A stretch of 64,000 nucleotides of DNA. Source: a virus. Below, piece after piece: positions 860 through 56,729 of the stretch. The stretch covers positions 4,691 to 68,690 of the IMG/VR virus record IMGVR_UViG_3300044800_000040. One strand, given 5' to 3'. Position 1 is the first letter of the stretch; each line of letters starts with the position of its first letter. The notes beneath the pieces are model-generated. The model did no database searches and had not been told where the DNA came from. It was given only the letters and a program-made list of their open reading frames with translations. The translations under genes and the position numbers were made by a program.

Positions 860-1347
860 TGACCCTGGTTGTCGGCTCGGCTCCATGCTGGGCCGACGAC
901 TTGGCAAACTTCGCTGCGCTGGGGTGGCCTATCAAAGAGGTGATTGCGGTGAACAGAGCAGGCATCGAATACACCAGCCCCATCGCAGCTTGGGCCACCT
1001 ACCACCCCGAGGAACTCCCGGAGTGGTTGGCCGCCAGACGGGCCGCTGGTGGCAATGTGGGCATCCCTTGCTACTCTCACCGCCTTGTCCCCCACGTCAC
1101 CCAGGTGCTTGAGCATGAGGAGCCCAGTGGCTCGTCCACCCTTTTGGGTGTGCGGGTTGCCCTGCTCCGCGGAGCTCTCGGCGTAGTCGTGGTGGGTTGC
1201 CGGCTCGATGATCAGGACTACTGGGTCTATCGTCAGGGCTGGCGCGAATACACTGATCAACTCCAGGGCTGCGTGCGGGCCATGTCGGGGTGGCTGTCAC
1301 AGCACCTCGGCGTTCCGTCGCACCCCTGGTTGGAGGCACTCACATGA
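859..1347 (+). CDS. Rossmann-like enzyme (MptE/DUF115/GT29-like fold), paralog of 4938..5531
   Basis: GTG overlaps the upstream stop; motifs LVVGS, VIAVN, ATYHP, GSSTL, VVVG, VRAMSG shared with the paralog. Confidence 0.5.
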   Translation: MTLVVGSAPCWADDLANFAALGWPIKEVIAVNRAGIEYTSPIAAWATYHPEELPEWLAARRAAGGNVGIPCYSHRLVPHVTQVLEHEEPSGSSTLLGVRVALLRGALGVVVVGCRLDDQDYWVYRQGWREYTDQLQGCVRAMSGWLSQHLGVPSHPWLEALT

Positions 1348-1688
1348 ACGACCGCGCTGTCGAAATCCTGGAGATGAGCAACATCAGGCTCTTCTGCCCT
1401 GGTGCTACCCTGACCGGGGCTCCCCTTGTATGCAACACGGGTAGCAACGCCACCACGGGCACGGCCACGACTGGCCTGCTCTACGTGTACTCGACCGTGG
1501 ACTTCCACATCAAGATCAGCACCGCCAGCCCGGCGACTGCGGCGTCCACCAATGACGCTCCGTTCCCCGGCCTGACCCCGTTGCTGTTCTCGGTGCCGTT
1601 GGGCTCCAGGGTGGCTGTCGTGAAGCGCGATGGCGTGGCCGACGGCACGACCTGGGTCCACAACGTCATTGACACCACGAGGGTGTAG
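1344..1688 (+). CDS. Hypothetical virion protein
   Basis: ATGA overlap, GGAGG RBS. Confidence 0.55.
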   Translation: MNDRAVEILEMSNIRLFCPGATLTGAPLVCNTGSNATTGTATTGLLYVYSTVDFHIKISTASPATAASTNDAPFPGLTPLLFSVPLGSRVAVVKRDGVADGTTWVHNVIDTTRV

Positions 1689-1690
1689 TC

Positions 1691-2089
1691 ATGGGCCTGG
1701 GCGTTGTTCTCCAGCAGGCGATCGTGGACTGGCTCAAGGGCACGTCCTTCATCGCTGCACCCGTGTCCATGACCCTGGCGCTGTCCACTGCCGACCCCCT
1801 GGACGATGGCAGCGGCCTGGCCGAGCCCACCGGCAACGGCTATGCCCGGCAGACCTTCACGCCAGGGGCCCGCACCAGCACGAACGGCGTTGGCACAACC
1901 GTGGCAAACGCGACCGACATCATCCACGGCCCGGCGTCGGGATCGGGGTGGGGAACCATCACCCACTTCTGCGTCATCGACAGCTCCAGCCGGAAGGTGC
2001 TGTCCGGTTCCTACGCTGTGCCCAAGAACGTAGCCGTCGGCGACTCCTTCGTGACCAACGCCGGCAGCATCATCCTGACTGTGAGGTAG
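1691..2089 (+). CDS. Structural protein (LALSTADP...EPTGNGYARQ type)
   Basis: Motif common in phage virion proteins. Confidence 0.6.
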   Translation: MGLGVVLQQAIVDWLKGTSFIAAPVSMTLALSTADPLDDGSGLAEPTGNGYARQTFTPGARTSTNGVGTTVANATDIIHGPASGSGWGTITHFCVIDSSSRKVLSGSYAVPKNVAVGDSFVTNAGSIILTVR

Positions 2090-2092
2090 CAG

Positions 2093-2560
2093 ATGCGTGG
2101 ACCTTCCCAGGCCAACCGGCAGCAGTCCGGAGCAGTCCTTGTCGGTGGATACCTGGCAGGGACTTCCGGCGTTCGGAGGTCTGGTACGGGCACGTGCCTG
2201 GCTCTCGCAGAAACGGGTGCTGTGGGCGTGCGGGGAGCCGGGGGGCAGTCTGACCTTGCCCTGGGCGTCTCCGTTGCCACAGCGCACGCAAACCGCTTCC
2301 TTGCCCGGTCTGTGCAGTCGCTCGGAGCCGAGTGCGTCTGCATCACCGCCAAGGAAATCGTGGCCATCTCTCGCGGCGTGTGGGAGGCCCTGCTCGGTGG
2401 CACGATCACCGCAGAGGACGCCATGCTGGCCGCGGGTTCCGCCGGAGACCCCTGGATCACCCCGCTGCCTGGCACGTACCCCGCTGGCAGTGCAGGCGCT
2501 CTCGTGTCCGGGCTGGACACCAAGGTTGACGACACCCAGGCGCTGGTCCTGGCAAAGTAG
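2093..2560 (+). CDS. Hypothetical virion protein
   Basis: Fills the gap between flanking genes; GAGG RBS. Confidence 0.5.
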   Translation: MRGPSQANRQQSGAVLVGGYLAGTSGVRRSGTGTCLALAETGAVGVRGAGGQSDLALGVSVATAHANRFLARSVQSLGAECVCITAKEIVAISRGVWEALLGGTITAEDAMLAAGSAGDPWITPLPGTYPAGSAGALVSGLDTKVDDTQALVLAK

Positions 2561-2569
2561 GAGAGGAAC

Positions 2570-3127
2570 ATGCCCACCACGCTCATCGTCGAGGACGGCA
2601 CCGTCGTTGCCAACGCGAACGCCTTCGTTGCCCTGGCAACCTGCGACACGTATCACAGCCTGCGCGGCAACTCGGCCTGGACCGGGACCGACGCTGCCAA
2701 GGAAGCTGCCATCGTCAAGGCCACCTTCTATCTCGACCGGCTCAACTGGAAGGGGCTCAAGACCGGGGTCAACAACCCGCTCGCCTGGCCGCGCTACGGC
2801 GACAGTCTCCAGGGCTGGAACCGGATGGTCATGCCGGCCTCGCCGTTCATCGGCATTGTGGACGAGGACGGGTATGATGTGGGCACGGCAACGGTCCCGG
2901 TGAAGGTTCAGTACGCCTGTTGCGAGATGGCGCTGCGCTTCTTGAACAGCGCGGTGCCCGAGCCCGACCTCGACAGGGGTGGCAAGATCAAGTCGCAGAC
3001 CATCGACGTCATCAGCATCACTTACGAGTCCGGCGCACCGACCGCCCCGGTGTACACGGTCATCCAGCGGCTCCTGCGCGGGCTGCTGCGCGCCGACACC
3101 ACCTCGACGATTCAGCTGGGGATGTAG
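2570..3127 (+). CDS. Head-tail connector (DnaT-like family)
   Basis: LIVEDGTVVANANAFV...LAWPR...VQYACCEMAL pattern; position. Confidence 0.75.
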   Translation: MPTTLIVEDGTVVANANAFVALATCDTYHSLRGNSAWTGTDAAKEAAIVKATFYLDRLNWKGLKTGVNNPLAWPRYGDSLQGWNRMVMPASPFIGIVDEDGYDVGTATVPVKVQYACCEMALRFLNSAVPEPDLDRGGKIKSQTIDVISITYESGAPTAPVYTVIQRLLRGLLRADTTSTIQLGM

Positions 3128-3129
3128 TC

Positions 3130-3507
3130 ATGGAATGGAACTCCATCGCGGGCACGGTCGCCACCCAGATTGCCAACTATGGTGCGGACGTGACAATCAG
3201 TCGGGCCATCAAGGGCACCTTCAACGATGCGGCAGGGACGTTCACCGGGGACTCGGTGGCCACCTACCCGGTCAAGGCGCTCATCAACGCCAAGGGGAAG
3301 CGGGGCTATGGTGAGGACCGCGAGCCTGGTACCCTCATCCGCTCCGCCTCCATCAGCTTTCTTGTGGCCGCCAACTCCCTGTCCATCACCCCGCTGGCGG
3401 GTGACTTGGTCACCCTGGCGAACGGCACCGTGTTCACGGTTGAGCAGAACATCCCGGTGTTCCCTGGGGGCGTCTACCTGATGCACCGTCTGCTGTGCAG
3501 GGCGTAG
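3130..3507 (+). CDS. Head closure / head-tail joining protein
   Basis: Size and position after the connector. Confidence 0.6.
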   Translation: MEWNSIAGTVATQIANYGADVTISRAIKGTFNDAAGTFTGDSVATYPVKALINAKGKRGYGEDREPGTLIRSASISFLVAANSLSITPLAGDLVTLANGTVFTVEQNIPVFPGGVYLMHRLLCRA

Positions 3508-3510
3508 GTC

Positions 3511-3996
3511 ATGGCGGGCAGCTTCCAGATTGCGGTGAAGAAATTCACCGACCAGACCGAGAAGCGGATCAACGCAACCGTGCGCTGGCTTTGCCTTGAA
3601 ATCAGTCGCCGTGTCATTCTCAAGACCCCCGTGGACACCGGACGTGCCCGCGGGTCATGGACCCCCGCCATGAACGCAATGGCGACGGGCGGTGGGCAGA
3701 TAGACAAGTCTGGGGGAGCCACCCTGGGTGCGGTGTCCGGGGTCGTCGCCGGCTACAAGCCAGGGGACACCTTCTACCTGATGAGCAACCTGCCGTACAT
3801 CGGCGTGCTGGAATATGGGCAGTACCCCGATCCCCCTGCACGTGGCAGCTGGGTCAAGAAGGCGGGCAAGAAGGGCAGCTGGGTTGTGAAGTCCTCCGGG
3901 GGCTTTTCCAAGCAAGCCCCCGCGGGCATGGTGCGCATCACCCTGGCAGAGTTCCCGGGCATTGTCGAACAAGCAGTCAGCCACGCCAAGGAGTAG
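3511..3996 (+). CDS. HK97 gp10-like tail completion protein
   Basis: TPVDTGRARGSW, NLPYIGVLEYG, SKQAPAGMVR motifs. Confidence 0.85.
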   Translation: MAGSFQIAVKKFTDQTEKRINATVRWLCLEISRRVILKTPVDTGRARGSWTPAMNAMATGGGQIDKSGGATLGAVSGVVAGYKPGDTFYLMSNLPYIGVLEYGQYPDPPARGSWVKKAGKKGSWVVKSSGGFSKQAPAGMVRITLAEFPGIVEQAVSHAKE

Positions 3997-3999
3997 CAA

Positions 4000-4731
4000 G
4001 TGGGAAAGCACACCGACATCCAGTCCCTTCTCAATGCCAGGCTCGCGACGATCTCGCCCGCACTGCCCATTTGTCACGAGAACATTGACTTCACTCCGCC
4101 CAACCCGACAGACGCCGTGCTGCCGCAGATCAGCAAGTGCTATTTCGTCGCCCGCACCCCTGCCGTCGATGACGTCTACACAATCACCATTGACGGCGTG
4201 GCGCATACGGCCTCCGGAGCAAGCCTGTCCGCGATCATGGCCGCGCTCACCGGCAGTATTGTGGGTGCAAGGCTCACCGCTAGCCCTCCCACTGTCATCA
4301 TCACAGGGGCGTCAGACGGCACGCCCTTCACCGTGGCTGTGTCCGCTGTGACAGCGGGCGGCGTGCCCATTGCCGGAGCCCTTGCGTCCCCGGCCTACGC
4401 CACCACCCAGGACGCCTTCATCGGCAATGCCTGGCTGCGCTCCTTTCTCATGGAGGGTCGCCCGATGCCCGCCACCATTGGCGTCGACGGGCTCAACAAG
4501 CAGGTCGGCGTGTTCCAGGTGGATGTGCTGTTCGCGGCGGGGGAGGGCTGGGGCGACTGCAAGGCAATGGCGGACACGGTCTGTGCGTTGTTCAAGCGAG
4601 GCACCTCCATGACCCAGGGCACCAGCCGTGTGCTTGTCGAAGGCAGCGGGCCTGGCCCGGCGACGACCGATGGCCAGTGGTACCGCATCCCCGTGTCGGT
4701 CTACTACATGGCGTTCGTGGAAAATGACTGA
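4000..4731 (+). CDS. Tail terminator (DUF4128-like) with internal insertion
   Basis: ENIDFTPP...GVFQVDV...ADTVCALFKRGT...WYRIPVSVYY. Confidence 0.7.
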   Translation: MGKHTDIQSLLNARLATISPALPICHENIDFTPPNPTDAVLPQISKCYFVARTPAVDDVYTITIDGVAHTASGASLSAIMAALTGSIVGARLTASPPTVIITGASDGTPFTVAVSAVTAGGVPIAGALASPAYATTQDAFIGNAWLRSFLMEGRPMPATIGVDGLNKQVGVFQVDVLFAAGEGWGDCKAMADTVCALFKRGTSMTQGTSRVLVEGSGPGPATTDGQWYRIPVSVYYMAFVEND

Positions 4732-4906
4732 TGCCAAGCCGCAGGCCATTCACAACTTCCGCTGCCCGGTCTGTACCCACTTGCTTTTCAGGGGTCAGGT
4801 CCTTATGGTGGAAATCAAGTGCGACAAATGCAAGTCGCTGATGGTCTTTCATGCATCGGGCAAAGCCCAGTTGATCGAGCGTCGTAGAACGCCTGCTGTG
4901 AAGTGA
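4724..4906 (+). CDS. Mu Com-like zinc-finger regulator
   Basis: RCPVCTHLLF...VEIKCDKCK. Confidence 0.7.
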   Translation: MTDAKPQAIHNFRCPVCTHLLFRGQVLMVEIKCDKCKSLMVFHASGKAQLIERRRTPAVK

Positions 4907-34429: not shown

Positions 34430-34438
34430 ATTATACGC
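34430..34438 (-). promoter_or_regulatory. GCGTATAAT promoter motif
   Basis: Exact motif at the head of a 200-nt intergenic leader. Confidence 0.7.
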
Positions 34439-36405
34439 TAGCCGCAGACCACCGCATAACAGGACAGGACGAGGCCGGCCCGGCCGCTGGCGTAGTAGGG
34501 CTCCTTGAAGCACTCCAGCACCAGGGCGGCGTGGGGGTTGTCCCCCTTGATCAGCACGCTGGTGAAGTAGCCGAGCACCGAGCGGCGGATGGACTCCTCG
34601 TCCTGGTCTGCCAGGCCACGTAGGATGGTGGCGATGGGTGCCCAGGTCAGCTTGCCCTTGCCCATGAGCGCACGACACAGCTCGATGGTGGCAGACAGGT
34701 CAGCCGCCGCCTTGTCCACCATCTTGACCTGATCCGCAGGGGAGAGGTCGATGAGCGCCTCGAGGATGGACAGGGCGAGCCTGGCACTGCCCACGGCATT
34801 GCGTGCGATGAGCTCAACCACTTCTTCCGACACCTTGGCCTTCTCGGCACGGCATACCCGGTTGACCAGGGCAATGAGCTTGGCTTCGGTAAGGCTGCTC
34901 ACCTCGTAGGTTGTGAGCCGGGTCTTGACCGTCGGCAGCAGCTTCTGCGGCTCGGTCGTCGCCATGAGCACGAACACATGACCCGGAGGATGCTCCAGCC
35001 CTTTCAGCAAGGCATTCTGGGCGTCATTGGTGAGCTTGTGGCAGTTGTGTACCAACACCCCACCTGCGAAGTAGCTGGGGTGCCCATCGATCTCGAGGTC
35101 ATGGTATTCTACGAAGCCGCGACGAATTTCATCACTTGTGAAATCACTCGGGCCAAGTCCTGCATCACCTCCTGATTCGTAAAGCGCAACACCACCCACC
35201 CGAACGAGTGCAGGAGCTCCGTCTTTTTCGTATCCAGCAGTGAATTCCGCCTCGACCTGTGCCCACGTCCGTCCACTTCTACGGCAATTTTCAACACAGA
35301 ATTTGCGATGTCCACCTTGTAGCTGTTCGGGCACCCCGGTGCTTTCCCCGTCGGGATCACCACTTCCATCGGCCAACCAAGTGCCGTCGCCAGCAGGCGT
35401 TGAGGTTCTGTTGTCTTCCCGTTCCCTCCCCGCGCCCCCTTCCATATGCGAAGGGAGCCCTTGGCTGTCTTGGTCGCACGGGCCTTCTCCAATGTGATGG
35501 GGTTGGCCGACGGGTTGTCTCGCTGCATGCGCTGACTGTGCGCCTGTCTCTCCGCAGCCCCCTCTGGGGTCTCCATCAGAAACCGCTTCCGACTGATGGA
35601 AATCTTTGCCGCAACTTGCGCGTTGTGCACCTTGGCACGGACTTCCGGAAGTGCCATCCGTCTCACCGCTGCACATGACCTGGAGCATGTCTGCTGATTG
35701 TACTTCTCCTGTCGGTTCGGAAAGAACGGCATCGGTGTACTGCATACTGGGCACGGTCTCGTCGTTGTCATTAGGAACCTCCGCAAGCATCGCTGGTGAG
35801 CTTGTGCGGTCCACATTATGACAATTCATGGGGTATAACAAGTCCCCCTCACGAAGATCACCAGCGGGCACCCACCCTCGCGTGGTGCGGAACAGGTGCT
35901 CCCGAGAGCAGCGGATGTCCCCTTGGTCAGTATGCACCCGCGCTGTGCGCTCCAAGGGCACCTTGTTGACAAAGTGGTTGAGCACTGTGCGGAATCCCTG
36001 CATGGATTGCACAAGTTCGCCGGGCTGGATGTCTTGAATGGGTCGCACCCCGCCCAGGCACACGACAGGTGTGTCGGCCGCGAAGCACTCGTCCAGGAAG
36101 AAGACCCGGCACGGCCCGGCCATCGGCTTGAGCCGCATCTGCTGGCGCAGGTCACGGATGGAGTCGATGCCGCGGAAGTCCGCGCTGTCCACTTCCTTGA
36201 AGTCCAGCTCCATGTTGCAGCCCAGTTCGGCGGCGACGATGCGGGCAAGGGTTGTCTTGCCACAGCCCGACGGGCCGAGGAACAACATGGAGTGCGGGAT
36301 GTTCTCCCGGTCACGGGCCAGGACGTTGCGCAGGGACTCGATCACCTGGGGGTTACCAAGCATCTCGTCCAGGCTTTGCGGGCGGTGTTTATTGTACAGC
36401 GACAT
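34438..36405 (-). CDS. dnaX: Clamp loader ATPase (DnaX gamma/tau-like) with intein
   Basis: LYNKHRP, GPSGCGKTTLAR, LDE|CH, AQNALLKGLEHPP, ATTEPQKL. Confidence 0.9.
   Translation of the reverse strand: MSLYNKHRPQSLDEMLGNPQVIESLRNVLARDRENIPHSMLFLGPSGCGKTTLARIVAAELGCNMELDFKEVDSADFRGIDSIRDLRQQMRLKPMAGPCRVFFLDECFAADTPVVCLGGVRPIQDIQPGELVQSMQGFRTVLNHFVNKVPLERTARVHTDQGDIRCSREHLFRTTRGWVPAGDLREGDLLYPMNCHNVDRTSSPAMLAEVPNDNDETVPSMQYTDAVLSEPTGEVQSADMLQVMCSGETDGTSGSPCQGAQRASCGKDFHQSEAVSDGDPRGGCGETGAQSAHAARQPVGQPHHIGEGPCDQDSQGLPSHMEGGAGREREDNRTSTPAGDGTWLADGSGDPDGESTGVPEQLQGGHRKFCVENCRRSGRTWAQVEAEFTAGYEKDGAPALVRVGGVALYESGGDAGLGPSDFTSDEIRRGFVEYHDLEIDGHPSYFAGGVLVHNCHKLTNDAQNALLKGLEHPPGHVFVLMATTEPQKLLPTVKTRLTTYEVSSLTEAKLIALVNRVCRAEKAKVSEEVVELIARNAVGSARLALSILEALIDLSPADQVKMVDKAAADLSATIELCRALMGKGKLTWAPIATILRGLADQDEESIRRSVLGYFTSVLIKGDNPHAALVLECFKEPYYASGRAGLVLSCYAVVCG
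35044..36087 (-). mobile_element. Intein (348 aa) in clamp loader Walker B
   Basis: CFAADT...CSREHLF...YHDLEIDGHPSYFAGGVLVHN followed by Cys. Confidence 0.92.
35109..35771 (-). CDS. DUF559/Vsr-like endonuclease in the +1 frame of the intein
   Basis: GGAGG RBS; CPVC..CSRSC; YKVDIA..KIAVEVDGRGH..DTKK..GWVVLRFTN. Confidence 0.85.
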   Translation of the reverse strand: MTTTRPCPVCSTPMPFFPNRQEKYNQQTCSRSCAAVRRMALPEVRAKVHNAQVAAKISISRKRFLMETPEGAAERQAHSQRMQRDNPSANPITLEKARATKTAKGSLRIWKGARGGNGKTTEPQRLLATALGWPMEVVIPTGKAPGCPNSYKVDIANSVLKIAVEVDGRGHRSRRNSLLDTKKTELLHSFGWVVLRFTNQEVMQDLARVISQVMKFVAAS

Positions 36406-53577: not shown

Positions 53578-56500
53578 TCATACTCCCCTCTTTCGGCCGA
53601 TACAAGAGACGAGCTCTGCGAGGACCCCTCCTGTGGTATTCCCAACCCCATCCATATTGGACACACCGTCCAGCGCCATGCCAATCACTTGCGCCTTGTT
53701 GTGGAGAAGGGTTGTGATGTCGTCGTCGAGGGTGTCTTGGGCCACAAGGCAGTACGAGCTGACGCTCTGCGACTCCTGTCCAATTCGGAGAACGCGGTCT
53801 TCCGCTTGGAGGAGTTCCGATGGGGTCCAAGGAAACTCCACGAAGCAGGTCGAGTCCGCCGCGGTCAGGGTGATTGCCACACCAGCCGCCTTGAGCCCGC
53901 CGATGAAGATCCGGCAGGTCGGGTCCTCCTGGAAGCGGTCGATGAACGCCTGCTTCATCATCGGCGGGGTGCGACCGTCCAGGCGCACAGGGTTGAACTC
54001 TCCCAGAGCTTCGAAGAGCCCGTCCAGGATCTCATGGTGGTGTGCGAACACAACCAGCTTCTTGCCGCTGTCCATGTAGTCCTTGATCCACTCGATGGCT
54101 GCCTCGAGCTTGGCCTTGGCAGACCAGAGCTTCAACTGGGTGATCTGCGCCAGCACCTGCCCAGGCTCCTTCTTGCCCGGTCTGGCGTTCTCCACCGCGA
54201 ACTCCGCCTCGAGCTTGGCATACGCCTTCAGTGCGGCCCGGGACAGTTCCAGGGGCACTACGCTGCGCTGCTTGATGGGCAGGTCCGGCATCACGTCCAC
54301 CTTGAGGCGGCGGATCATGACGGTCTTGGTCAGCAGGGCATGCAGCTCGTCCATGTTGGAAGCGCCGTTGAAGTTCCAGCCGTAGTCGGTGCGCTTGGCG
54401 TCGCAGAACCGCTGGGTGTAATCCCAGAAGCTCGGGAACACGTCGGGGCGCAGCATGTGCAGCACAGTCCAGAACTCGATGGGGCGGTTGATGATGGGGG
54501 TGCCGGAGGTGGCCACGATGTGCCGGCAACCTGTCGCCAGGCCGGGGTGCTTGATCTTCACCTTCTGCCAGGTGGCCTTGTCCATGATCTCTTCTTCGTA
54601 CCCGACGATGGCCCGGGTGCGAGCAGCCTTGGGGTTCTTGATCGCATGGCAGTTGTGAACCAGAACTTCGTTCGCGTAGTAACTTGGGTGTCCGCTGACC
54701 TGGAGATTATACACTGTCGCACCGTCTCCAGGACCTTCTCCGGGGTCTGTACAACCTCCCAATTCCAGAATCTCAACACGCACCACCCGAGGCTGGTCAG
54801 TACCTCTGTTTTCTTGGTGTCCAGCTTCTGTGCGCGCTTGGTCTGATGTCCCCGACCATCTATCTCGATTGCAATTTTCAGTCGGGGATGGGCAAGATCC
54901 ACTTTGTAGCAATGTGGGCACTCCGGACGATTGTTTGTGGGAATAGCCACCTCCGCTGACCAATGAAGTAGGCATGCCAGAAGTTTCTGTGGTTCTGTGA
55001 GTATCCCATTCCCTCCCCGCAGGCCCTTCCACGCCCGCAGGGTCCCGTTCCGTTCCTTGGTATCTCGCATCTTCTGAATGGTGGCAGGGGAGTGCATGGG
55101 GTTCTTCTTGGTCATGCGTATTGCCGCGTCTGGTCGGGGAGCACCTTTGAGTGCTTGTGACAACTTCCTGTTGCGTTCTGGTGAGAACACCCTTTTGCGA
55201 ATTTCCGGCTGGGACATCCTCCACTTCGCGGAGCAAGATGTTCCGCAAAAGCGTCTCGGCCGATTCTTTTTCTGTGCCGCAAGGAATGTCGCCCCGCACC
55301 ACTCGCATGTCATTTCCGTCATTTTCATTTATTGTTCCCTCCTTGCGGGACACTATACCAAGAATCTTCTCAGCAGGAAACAATAATCTTCCGGTGAGGT
55401 TTTCTGCGGCCACCCATCCAGATTCCGTAAAGATGGGGTGGTTGGGAGTGCATTCAAAGCTGGTACCATCGTCGAGTACAACACGGACAAGCGTGCTCAC
55501 TTTTTTCGAGAACACCTTCTGTACCTGTCCCATTCCGAACGCATTGTACACCCAGTCCCCCACCTCTATTTCCTCGATGGGGCGTGTGCCGTGTTCTGTG
55601 CGAATGGGGGTGCCAGCGGGGAAGCACTCGTCCAAGGCAATGACCTCGGGTGTGCCAACCTGGGCGACGATCTCGCACCACCAGTCGGAGAGGATGTCGT
55701 AGTTGACGATGATGATCACGCCCTTGCTCTCTCCCTTGGCCTTGCGCACGGTGTGGTCGAAGATGTTGTCGTTCTTGCCGGGCTTGCCACGCAGGGTGAT
55801 GACGTGCGGGTCGGACATCCACTGCAGGACATGGCGCTCCCAGGACGGCTTCGCCGTGGCAGGGCACACGATCACCGCGGGGCGAAGCTCCGGGTGCAGT
55901 TGCAGGTAGCCGATGATCTGGACGGTCTTGCCGAGACCCATGTCGTCGGCGAGCAGGGCGTTGCCGCCCATCTGGTCGAGGAAGGACACGCCCACGGTCT
56001 GGAAGGGGCGCAGCGTCTTCTGGAGGCCGGGGATCGCCAGGTCGGCGTTCTCACCCTTGGTGAAGGAGGCGAACCAGTCCTGCAGCGCCTTGCCCCGGAG
56101 TTCGAAGCCCAGGTTGCGCAGACCCTCGACGGCCTGGAACGACTGGGGCAGCGTCCAGAGCTTGCGGTCGGGGCACCAGCGGCGGCCCGGCAGATTCTTC
56201 ACGTCGGCGACGGTCTGGGGGTTGTAGGGGAAGCTCACCAGAAGCGTATTGCCCTCGAGGGTGACGAACTTGGTCGGGCTCTGGCTGCTGGCTGCACTCG
56301 CCTGGGGCACGGCCACAGGGGGCACGGGGCGCTTGCCGTTGGGTCGGGGAGCCACCTCGGCGTGCATCAGCTGCTTGGCATACTTGTGCAGCTTGGGCTT
56401 GATGAAGGACATCTGCCGCTCGGTGAGGAAGCCCTTGTCCTTGTACCACTCGGCAATGCTGGTCAGGATGTCAGCGTCGATCATGTTGAAGCCAGCGCCG

Positions 56501-56643
56501 TTCTGGTGGGAGGTCGTCTGCATGTACTTCTCGTCCTCCTCCTGGCGATGGTAGAGGGTCATGAGCGCGCCGATGGCGAACTCGTCGTTGTTCTTGATCT
56601 GCTCGATGATGCGCGCGACTTGTTCTTGCTGTTCGGCCTTCAT
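53578..56643 (-). CDS. SNF2-family (HARP/SMARCAL1-like) helicase with intein
   Basis: LADDMGLGKT, DE|CHAIKN, SGTPIINRP, QAEDRVLRIGQ; AAGGAG RBS before MKAEQQ. Confidence 0.92.
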   Translation of the reverse strand: MKAEQQEQVARIIEQIKNNDEFAIGALMTLYHRQEEDEKYMQTTSHQNGAGFNMIDADILTSIAEWYKDKGFLTERQMSFIKPKLHKYAKQLMHAEVAPRPNGKRPVPPVAVPQASAASSQSPTKFVTLEGNTLLVSFPYNPQTVADVKNLPGRRWCPDRKLWTLPQSFQAVEGLRNLGFELRGKALQDWFASFTKGENADLAIPGLQKTLRPFQTVGVSFLDQMGGNALLADDMGLGKTVQIIGYLQLHPELRPAVIVCPATAKPSWERHVLQWMSDPHVITLRGKPGKNDNIFDHTVRKAKGESKGVIIIVNYDILSDWWCEIVAQVGTPEVIALDECFPAGTPIRTEHGTRPIEEIEVGDWVYNAFGMGQVQKVFSKKVSTLVRVVLDDGTSFECTPNHPIFTESGWVAAENLTGRLLFPAEKILGIVSRKEGTINENDGNDMRVVRGDIPCGTEKESAETLLRNILLREVEDVPAGNSQKGVLTRTQQEVVTSTQRCSPTRRGNTHDQEEPHALPCHHSEDARYQGTERDPAGVEGPAGREWDTHRTTETSGMPTSLVSGGGYSHKQSSGVPTLLQSGSCPSPTENCNRDRWSGTSDQARTEAGHQENRGTDQPRVVRVEILELGGCTDPGEGPGDGATVYNLQVSGHPSYYANEVLVHNCHAIKNPKAARTRAIVGYEEEIMDKATWQKVKIKHPGLATGCRHIVATSGTPIINRPIEFWTVLHMLRPDVFPSFWDYTQRFCDAKRTDYGWNFNGASNMDELHALLTKTVMIRRLKVDVMPDLPIKQRSVVPLELSRAALKAYAKLEAEFAVENARPGKKEPGQVLAQITQLKLWSAKAKLEAAIEWIKDYMDSGKKLVVFAHHHEILDGLFEALGEFNPVRLDGRTPPMMKQAFIDRFQEDPTCRIFIGGLKAAGVAITLTAADSTCFVEFPWTPSELLQAEDRVLRIGQESQSVSSYCLVAQDTLDDDITTLLHNKAQVIGMALDGVSNMDGVGNTTGGVLAELVSCIGRKRGV
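54558..55328 (-). CDS. DUF559/Vsr-like endonuclease in the +1 frame of the intein
   Basis: AAGGAGG RBS; CEWC..FCGTSC; YKVDLA..KIAIEIDGRGH..DTKK..GWCVLRFWN. Confidence 0.85.
   Translation of the reverse strand: MKMTEMTCEWCGATFLAAQKKNRPRRFCGTSCSAKWRMSQPEIRKRVFSPERNRKLSQALKGAPRPDAAIRMTKKNPMHSPATIQKMRDTKERNGTLRAWKGLRGGNGILTEPQKLLACLLHWSAEVAIPTNNRPECPHCYKVDLAHPRLKIAIEIDGRGHQTKRAQKLDTKKTEVLTSLGWCVLRFWNWEVVQTPEKVLETVRQCIISRSADTQVTTRTKFWFTTAMRSRTPRLLAPGPSSGTKKRSWTRPPGRR
54652..55626 (-). mobile_element. Intein (325 aa) in helicase Walker B
   Basis: CFPAGT...CTPNHPIF...VYNLQVSGHPSYYANEVLVHN followed by Cys. Confidence 0.92.
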
Positions 56644-56663
56644 GTCTTGCTCCTTGGTTGATG

Positions 56664-56729
56664 TTGGGTGCCTCATCAGGCCAGGAGACCCAAGCTCCTA
56701 GCGACAGGGGGCGCACCCCCTGTTTCGGC
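56664..56729 (-). ncRNA. Type II hammerhead ribozyme
   Basis: gcc-GAAA-caggggg/ccccctg-UC-gctaggag/ctcctggc-CUGAUGA-ggc; loop uugggu can pair with tail acccaa. Confidence 0.92.

Follow-up and report, generated by a model that had tools for sequence, protein, structure and literature searches.

A probable mobile intein in a phage clamp-loader gene with a zinc-ribbon, DUF559/Vsr-like nuclease gene overprinted in its +1 frame

The DNA analysed here is a stretch of 64,000 nucleotides (nt), referred to below as the window, which corresponds to bases 4691–68690 of the virus record IMGVR_UViG_3300044800_000040. The record, of 68,690 base pairs (bp), was assembled from a metagenome, has direct terminal repeats and is rated complete. 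On the minus strand of the window lies a clamp-loader gene whose open reading frame (ORF) contains an intein at the Walker-B DE|CH junction, and the DNA of this intein holds a second ORF, in the +1 frame, that encodes a zinc ribbon and a DUF559/Vsr-like nuclease. With considerable confidence, we interpret this arrangement as a mobile intein that harbors its homing endonuclease as a separate gene. The layout recurs in dozens of viral loci and in a second gene of the same genome; it is neither an error nor a product of chance, and it is maintained by selection.

The intein, its linker and the nested nuclease gene

The clamp-loader precursor (Table 1) matched Pfam DNA_pol3_delta2 in two stretches (E-value 1.3e-19), AAA over residues 40–106 (1.3e-12) and PHROG 5846, 'clamp loader', again in two stretches (1e-55). 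Past the intein, the clamp-loader Pfam profile picks up again at profile position 105. The intein begins with a Cys residue at position 107, directly after LDE and followed by Phe, and its C-terminal end is VHN, after which comes the Cys+1 of a Cys-His pair. In an alignment of seven inteins, C1 was invariant, as was H64 within the sequence SREH (intein residues 61–64), which we take to be the block B (T/S)xxH motif. The G+C content of the intein is 0.585, compared with 0.620 for the window. No stop codon interrupts the host frame anywhere in the intein, and the coordinates and description that an earlier note on this DNA had given for the ORF, the intein and the nested ORF were correct in this respect as in the others.

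An AlphaFold2 model of the intein frame displayed two ordered ends separated by a linker of very low predicted local distance difference test (pLDDT) values (Table 1), in agreement with the earlier description of the middle as non-globular. A Foldseek search with this model returned 33 PDB matches at E ≤ 1e-3, and those listed were inteins, bacterial intein-like (BIL) or hedgehog Hint domains; the top match was gp41-1 (6qaz; E 2.2e-8, 36% identity over 88 columns). With the Pfam models Hint_2 and Intein_splicing, the intein scored under both cut-offs. The linker has no counterpart in a mini-intein of another clamp loader (locus L008, described below), and its amino acid identity among relatives is approximately 0.2. 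A functional domain in the middle of the host frame was considered and rejected. The Kyte-Doolittle hydropathy of the two intein loops in the window (−0.98 and −1.03) was equal to that of their synonymous shuffles; at four AT-rich loci the loop hydropathy was below that of the shuffles, but stop avoidance confounds this comparison. Not all of the overlap deserves the 'junk loop' label of the earlier note: its last ~54 codons fall within the ordered C-terminal part of the intein, and a 15-codon segment, which encodes GW.VLRF.N.EV of the nuclease together with a C-terminal strand of the intein, is constrained in both frames. Third-position identity in this segment is 0.57, as opposed to 0.31–0.41 elsewhere, and the host-frame amino acid identity is 0.43.

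The nested frame is open from position 35816 to its stop at 35109–35111 and is offset by one base downstream relative to the host frame. Its product matched Pfam DUF559 with an E-value of 4.9e-13 (49.4 bits against a cut-off of 20.6), a match found in all 16 aligned relatives, and the zinc-ribbon cysteines C7, C10, C29 and C33 are invariant in 16 relatives; a zinc finger plus DUF559/Vsr-like endonuclease is what the earlier note had read in this frame. Of 39 positions with a conservation of at least 85% in 71 other family members, the window nuclease retains 38, including the four cysteines, D154, E165, D167, H171, D180 and K183, and the lone change is a conservative one from I to V.

Modeling of the nested frame with AlphaFold2 (window sequence plus 15 relatives) gave a mean pLDDT of 89.4 and displayed two N-terminal β-hairpins bearing the four cysteines, a helical region and an α/β C-terminal domain. 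The top PDB match of this model in Foldseek was the catalytic domain of the homing endonuclease I-Bth0305I (3r3p; probability 1.00, target-normalized TM-score 0.63, E 1.8e-3), followed by Escherichia coli Vsr and the DUF559 protein 3hrl. When the sequence profile was compared with the PDB, the E-values were 5.7e-12 for 3hrl and 6.9e-4 for 3r3p. Residues D154, E165, D167, H171 and D180, candidates for the composite EDxHD catalytic motif, are invariant; a HMMER alignment places the N and W of I-Bth0305I opposite D167 and H171, in a register that is uncertain. The NUMOD/helix-turn-helix (HTH) type of N-terminal region is absent from the window nuclease, which has the four-cysteine zinc ribbon instead, and among the 16 relatives NUMOD3 was matched weakly in two (best E 0.0065).

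The start of the nested gene is the ATG at 35769–35771, which is preceded by its own GGAGG ribosome-binding site (Table 1), as the earlier note had pointed out; the upstream ATG of the nested frame, at 35816, has no GGAGG-like motif. At all nine loci compared, an ATG lies 1–10 codons ahead of the first CxxC with a purine-rich or Shine-Dalgarno (SD)-like motif upstream. An SD-like word lies 4–12 nt upstream of the start in 34 of 68 distinct relatives, compared with 9.2% of all ATG triplets in the same loci; the rate in the relatives is somewhat inflated against this control by the choice among candidate starts. A promoter scan detected none upstream of the nested start, one weak site inside the ORF and no terminators, and the RNA structure around the start was not unusual (z 0.16). 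Because the gene has an SD motif and ATG of its own, no detected promoter and no unusual RNA structure at its start, internal initiation on the host-gene mRNA is the likeliest route by which the nuclease would be made. At six clamp-loader loci (L019, L032, L035, L036, L016 and L038) a TTCACT- or ATTACT-like word was observed just before the nested SD motif, 20 nt upstream of the start; this word may be a conserved cassette boundary or signal.

These features suggest the following mechanism. The host frame would be translated straight across the insert, whose two ends would fold as a Hint splicing domain with an unstructured linker of ~180 residues between them, and splicing would excise the insert to leave a clamp loader of 307 amino acids. 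The DNA of the linker would double as a complete +1 nuclease gene, with its zinc ribbon, helical region and DUF559/Vsr-like nuclease domain, to be translated alone from the internal GGAGG-ATG on the host mRNA. Its targets are presumably DE|CH alleles of co-infecting phages that lack the intein; once the nuclease had cut one of them, repair would copy the whole element into the cut allele. Separate translation of the nuclease, splicing of the precursor and an expression of the nuclease that is 'uncoupled' from splicing, all put forward in the earlier note, are what we likewise infer.

Table 1. Positions of the clamp-loader intein, its nested gene and the second intein of the same kind, numbered along the window.
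Feature	Coordinates	Strand	Remarks
Clamp-loader precursor ORF (exteins and intein)	34438..36405	minus	655 amino acids; Pfam, PHROG
N-extein, residues 1–106	36088..36405	minus	ends at Walker-B residues LDE
Intein, precursor residues 107–454	35044..36087	minus	348 amino acids; at Walker-B DE|CH junction
N-terminal splicing region, intein residues 1–89	35821..36087	minus	pLDDT mostly >90; aligns to mini-intein L008
Host-frame linker, intein residues 90–272	35272..35820	minus	stop-free; predicted disordered, pLDDT ~28–43
Ordered C-terminal intein region, residues 273–348 (blocks F and G, VHN)	35044..35271	minus	pLDDT 69–93; aligns to L008
C-extein	34438..35043	minus	begins CHKLTND
Nested +1-frame gene (zinc ribbon, helical region, DUF559/Vsr-like nuclease)	35109..35771	minus	220 amino acids plus stop
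GGAGG Shine-Dalgarno-like motif	35778..35782	minus	6-nt spacer to nested ATG
Segment constrained in both frames (nuclease residues 190–204 and intein C-terminal strand)	35160..35204	minus	15 codons
Second intein of the same kind, in SNF2-like helicase ORF 53578–56676	54652..55626	minus	
+1 nuclease ORF of the SNF2-helicase intein	54558–55328	minus	47% identity to clamp-loader copy

Recurrence, frame-specific selection and sporadic distribution

A tblastn search of phage records with the nested protein matched 40 records, and every listed row fell under a single coding sequence (CDS) named helicase, P-loop NTPase or 'coil containing protein'. Pseudomonas phage MR14, Corynebacterium phage phi673 and Vibrio phage 1.088.O each have a +1 homologue inside a helicase intein whose own frame is open. 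The public annotation of MT104474.1, MG324353.1 and MG592463.1 (loci L001–L003) gives only the long helicase or P-loop NTPase CDS and leaves the nested nuclease ORF unannotated. The same layout was present in viral contigs, in the clamp loaders of L004, L006 and L007 and in the helicase of L005. By eye, the helicase ORF of L005 (1207 amino acids, 1118–4741) seems to bear a second, larger insertion downstream of its +1-nuclease intein.

A profile scan of the viral collection, from which the best 80 of 319 nuclease relatives were kept (68 clusters at 90% identity), extended this finding considerably. In 79 of the 80 loci the nuclease is nested within a longer open frame on the same strand that covers the whole match, and the offset is always +1; 77 of these 79 host frames matched profiles built from the intein N and C blocks, with junctions of the types DE|CF...HN|CH, DEAH|CF...HN|S and LDE|CF...HN|SS. 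The hosts include clamp loaders (36 loci, 28 of them distinct) and SNF2-type helicases (24 loci, 21 distinct), the remainder being other Helicase_C proteins, proteins without a Pfam match and open frames longer than 2500 amino acids. Seven loci (L046, L051, L054, L057, L066, L068 and L080) have host frames of more than 2100–2500 codons, which in five of the seven span the whole fetched locus; junctions such as DEAH|CF...HN|S occur in these long hosts, and in L046 and L080 no Pfam match was obtained in the 260 amino acids past the intein.

The window itself contains a second intein of this kind, in an SNF2-like helicase ORF (Table 1), with a G+C content of 0.539 against the 0.620 of the window. 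Its nuclease ORF extends ~94 nt beyond the end of the intein into the extein. Across the junction, the two insertion sites have the same 13-nt core, and over 42 bases in total they agree at 26. A quick tree built from 73 nucleases placed each of the 31 copies with a clamp-loader host on one side of 34 rows; in this tree the SNF2 copy of the window paired with an SNF2-hosted nuclease, and the host labels required 15 changes as opposed to 36.5 in shuffles. Since the tree splits by host, the two copies in the window belong to different target-specialized lineages, with no recent duplication.

Chance openness of the host frame was evaluated by 5000 synonymous-codon shuffles of each of nine nested ORFs, in which host-frame stops were counted. 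For the clamp-loader copy of the window the shuffles contained a mean of 4.2 host-frame stops and only 0.64% of them left the host frame open; the corresponding proportion was 0.14% for MR14 and 0% for the other seven loci. The actual host frame is stop-free at all nine loci, where the shuffle means range from 4.2 to 16 stops, and the third frame contains 11 stops in the clamp-loader locus of the window and 9–29 across the nine.

The pattern of conservation at these nine loci follows the nuclease frame. Identity at nested codon positions 1, 2 and 3 was 0.51, 0.57 and 0.355, which is the usual coding pattern, and amino acid identity over the same columns was 0.416 in the nuclease frame vs 0.203 in the host frame. 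The earlier note had proposed a per-frame comparison of nonsynonymous with synonymous substitution (dN/dS) as a check; in 27 pairs of relatives with 55–98.5% protein identity, Nei-Gojobori omega was 0.12–0.37 in the nuclease frame and 0.61–1.67 in the host frame. Near-identical locus pairs, with 0–1 differences, were uninformative on selection. Taken together, these comparisons among relatives support the view that the nuclease frame is under purifying selection and that selection is relaxed on the host frame that it overlaps.

The distribution of the intein at its clamp-loader site is sporadic. Among 80 viral loci related to the C-extein, 77 are intein-less, with DE running directly into CHKLTNDA, as befits a precise insertion whose removal would rejoin the exteins into a normal homologue; the three exceptions belong to the contigs of L006, L007 and L008. 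Biased as this sample is by its seeding with that peptide pattern, it demonstrates that empty sites are common and that Cys+1 belongs natively to the host family. A contig from wastewater run X2 (record 6) matches the C-extein at 35006–35041 up to the intein boundary, with 5 of 36 letters differing, and beyond the boundary it would read ...WLIDEA on the minus strand; it may be an intein-less relative, the match being very short. At the same clamp-loader site, L008 contains a mini-intein of 148 amino acids (3310–3753) that aligns with both ends of the window intein and lacks the middle. In its +1 frame there is a remnant of 31 codons from the C-terminal end of the nuclease, preceded by stops, which includes the doubly constrained stretch. 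Because the remnant persists, the L008 mini-intein arose by deletion of the nuclease gene, and because that stretch is constrained in both frames, loss of the nuclease would leave a footprint of the kind seen there.

Alternative explanations

Homing endonucleases often decay once they are fixed, and the mini-intein of L008, with its nuclease remnant at the same site, demonstrates a state of this kind. The nested ORF of the window could likewise be what is left of a nuclease gene that entered a mini-intein in the past and is now unexpressed or decaying, such that the host frame alone still matters. We regard this as unlikely in view of the intact window copy with its near-complete set of conserved positions, the strong SD motif and ATG, the purifying selection on the nuclease frame of the family and the large majority of related clamp loaders that are still empty targets.

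The nuclease could also be produced by +1 ribosomal frameshifting as a fusion of N-extein, N-intein and nuclease, with no internal initiation. Three database proteins, P0046 (441 amino acids), P0083 (496) and P0164 (344), do run from the N-extein or N-intein in frame into the nuclease and end at the nuclease stop. They may be frameshifted, fractured or mis-assembled forms, and since they read in frame into the nuclease, other routes of expression or broken forms do exist. The ATG codons placed shortly ahead of the first zinc-ribbon CxxC at all nine loci, and the enrichment of SD-like motifs in front of such starts (50% vs 9.2%), make frameshifting very improbable. The RNA structure at the start is unremarkable, and no search for a conserved slippery site was made.

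Similarly low is the probability that we assign to a naturally split, or 'fractured', gene whose halves are made as two polypeptides and ligated by trans-splicing. The closest solved structure to the N-terminal domain is the naturally split gp41-1 intein, and one of the 80 loci, L047 (2669–4810), has an interrupted host frame: a stop at 3626–3628, inside the linker, ends an N part that begins at 2669, the +1 nuclease occupies 3300–4139, and a C part starts from an ATG at 3866 in the original frame. L047 is either a dead gene (pseudogene), an error, or a fractured, split-intein gene in the making. In the window the host frame is open throughout the intein and is kept open by selection, so a single precursor is the simple reading; with 79 of the 80 relatives contiguous as well, an obligately split gene was rejected.

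A sequencing or assembly artefact, in which two compensating indels threw an ordinary in-frame intein nuclease out of frame, is close to refuted, even though the record is metagenome-assembled and was compared with contigs rather than raw reads, because the same +1 offset recurs in 79 of 80 loci, in three isolated GenBank phages and in a second gene of this genome. This recurrence is a stronger argument than the contig of 52,131 nt from run X1, assembled with a different pipeline, which matches the stretch over its full length without a single difference or gap; X1 could be the sample from which the record came and is hence not an independent sampling. Runs X2–X4 covered extein parts and short conserved pieces, and the stretches that they left uncovered are uninformative. 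A nuclease in the frame of the intein was rejected as well: a contiguous form of that kind was not found, the top 150 phmmer hits were all 496 amino acids or shorter, and no fused in-frame form was found among proteins of 386–2000 amino acids, the latter being weak evidence.

We are thus left with a contiguous, mobile intein that contains a separate +1 nuclease gene as the explanation that we favor, and several points weigh against it. The 80 nuclease loci, as the best of 319, are a biased sample, as are the 80 C-extein loci, all of which were seeded by one peptide pattern. Half of the distinct relatives (34 of 68) are without a recognizable SD-like motif, and the three proteins that read in frame into the nuclease depart from the common layout. 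The model of the intein frame was built from only seven sequences, and the best Foldseek E-value of the nuclease model (1.8e-3) is slightly above the 1e-3 line of the tool. The window nuclease has no close relative, with a best identity of ~50%; a blastn search of the phage collection returned one record covering 4% of the query, and scans for peptide patterns taken from the proteins of the window yielded just 2 and 3 loci. For this reason the omega values come from relatives alone, and no pair involves the element in the window.

Relation to known intein and nuclease systems

The family described here is large and mostly unannotated, and it adds to the few documented inteins in which the homing nuclease is a separate overlapping gene. 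Selection holds ~660 nt open in two frames simultaneously, and in several phage ATPases that are unrelated to one another the Walker-B DE|CH site is the target of one type of cassette, which occurs twice in one genome. Gene callers annotate the host ORF alone; they overlook the nuclease, and the intein will probably be taken for a 'decaying' one.

An out-of-frame intein nuclease was first proposed by Gorbalenya (1998), as credited by Phillips et al. (10.64898/2026.09.14.751524). In the latter preprint, Phillips, DeSimone and Gogarten (2026) describe a LAGLIDADG nuclease in the +2 ORF of a cyanobacterial dnaX intein, together with frame-specific dN/dS values; Novikova et al. (PMC4760082) place the cyanobacterial clamp-loader intein right after Walker B. 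The window intein resembles that of dnaX in its clamp-loader host, its position after Walker B, the disordered middle of the intein frame, an overlapping sense-frame nuclease with its own SD motif, low dN/dS values for the nuclease frame alongside high ones for the host frame, and the coexistence of mini-intein and intein-free alleles. It differs in having a zinc ribbon with a DUF559/Vsr-like domain rather than a LAGLIDADG nuclease, in the +1 rather than the +2 ORF, and in residing in phage rather than bacterial genes; in addition, the cassette is found in SNF2 and other helicases. Between the two splicing domains the relationship is no particularly close one, as the Spl DnaX mini-intein (7cfv) shares 24% identity with that of the window and ranked tenth in Foldseek.

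Gosselin, Arsenault and Gogarten (10.1101/2025.01.02.630785) described, in actinophage inteins, nucleases of the LAGLIDADG and VSR-like types on the antisense strand and of the endonuclease VII-like type in frame 3; they propose that a free-standing nuclease gene invaded the intein, and warn that annotation misses such ORFs. Their inteins share with ours a nuclease located outside the intein frame and an in-frame middle without recognizable structure. In their study the VSR-like nucleases are antisense, unlike those described here, and the sense out-of-frame case is endonuclease VII-like and in frame 3. The inteins that they describe reside in genes for DNA polymerase, minor capsid, terminase and thymidylate synthase proteins rather than in clamp loaders or helicases.

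The nuclease fold is also found in I-Bth0305I, which was characterized by Taylor et al. (2011; PMC3239194), who named the EDxHD homing-endonuclease family, of which it is the prototype. Both proteins possess a C-terminal Vsr-like nuclease fold with a DNA-binding region N-terminal to it, and both belong to a phage mobile element. I-Bth0305I is associated with a group I intron and has a NUMOD/HTH region, as opposed to the zinc ribbon observed here; the sequence similarity between them is weak (the profile match to 3r3p given above), and the window nuclease family is nearer to Pfam DUF559 and 3hrl. An insertion in the DNA methylase of phage ShiLan (PMC11855218) is alike in being stop-free in the host frame and in hiding an out-of-frame nuclease, and is unlike in its HNH nuclease, its methylase host and an insert that reportedly could not be identified as an intein or intron.

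The dual-coding arrangement claimed in the earlier note is thus supported by comparison as far as a separately encoded +1 nuclease within an intein frame held free of stops, and no more, is concerned, but it does not constitute a new class, since out-of-frame and antisense cases have been published. What is apparently unreported is the combination of a sense +1 zinc-ribbon and DUF559/Vsr-like nuclease with contiguous Walker-B inteins of phage clamp loaders and helicases: in the literature covered, which stops short of preprint supplements that possibly list such cases, we found no account of a Vsr/DUF559 nuclease encoded in the sense +1 frame of a clamp-loader or helicase intein.

The 'fractured genes' of Dassa et al. 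(2009; PMC2677866) are split inteins whose two halves flank a free-standing gene for a GIY-YIG or Vsr-like nuclease, nuclease types that these authors described as 'not known to be present in inteins'; their loci show a stop, a gap of 27–51 bases and a 3' overlap of 6–69 bp. Like the fractured genes, the loci described here are phage replication genes with a Vsr-like nuclease whose 3' end overlaps the coding region of the C-intein, and among solved structures it is the gp41-1 intein described in that study that our intein model matches best. In the fractured genes the host frame is interrupted, with a stop, then a non-coding gap and then a new start, whereas here the host frame is stop-free through the nuclease gene; the hosts in that study include neither clamp loaders nor SNF2 helicases. 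It is conceivable, and we put it forward tentatively, that the +1-overprinted family represents a contiguous sister or precursor state of the fractured-gene inteins. This is hinted at by L047, which is in exactly such a nonsense-interrupted state, by the naturally split gp41-1 as the closest solved structure, by the nuclease/C-intein 3' overlap common to the published fractured genes and by the doubly constrained stretch, through which nuclease loss leaves a footprint as in L008. A single nonsense change in the dispensable linker would convert a cis-splicing intein with a nested nuclease gene into a split one whose two parts flank a free-standing Vsr-like nuclease, a plausible one-step path to the split inteins that are useful in protein engineering.

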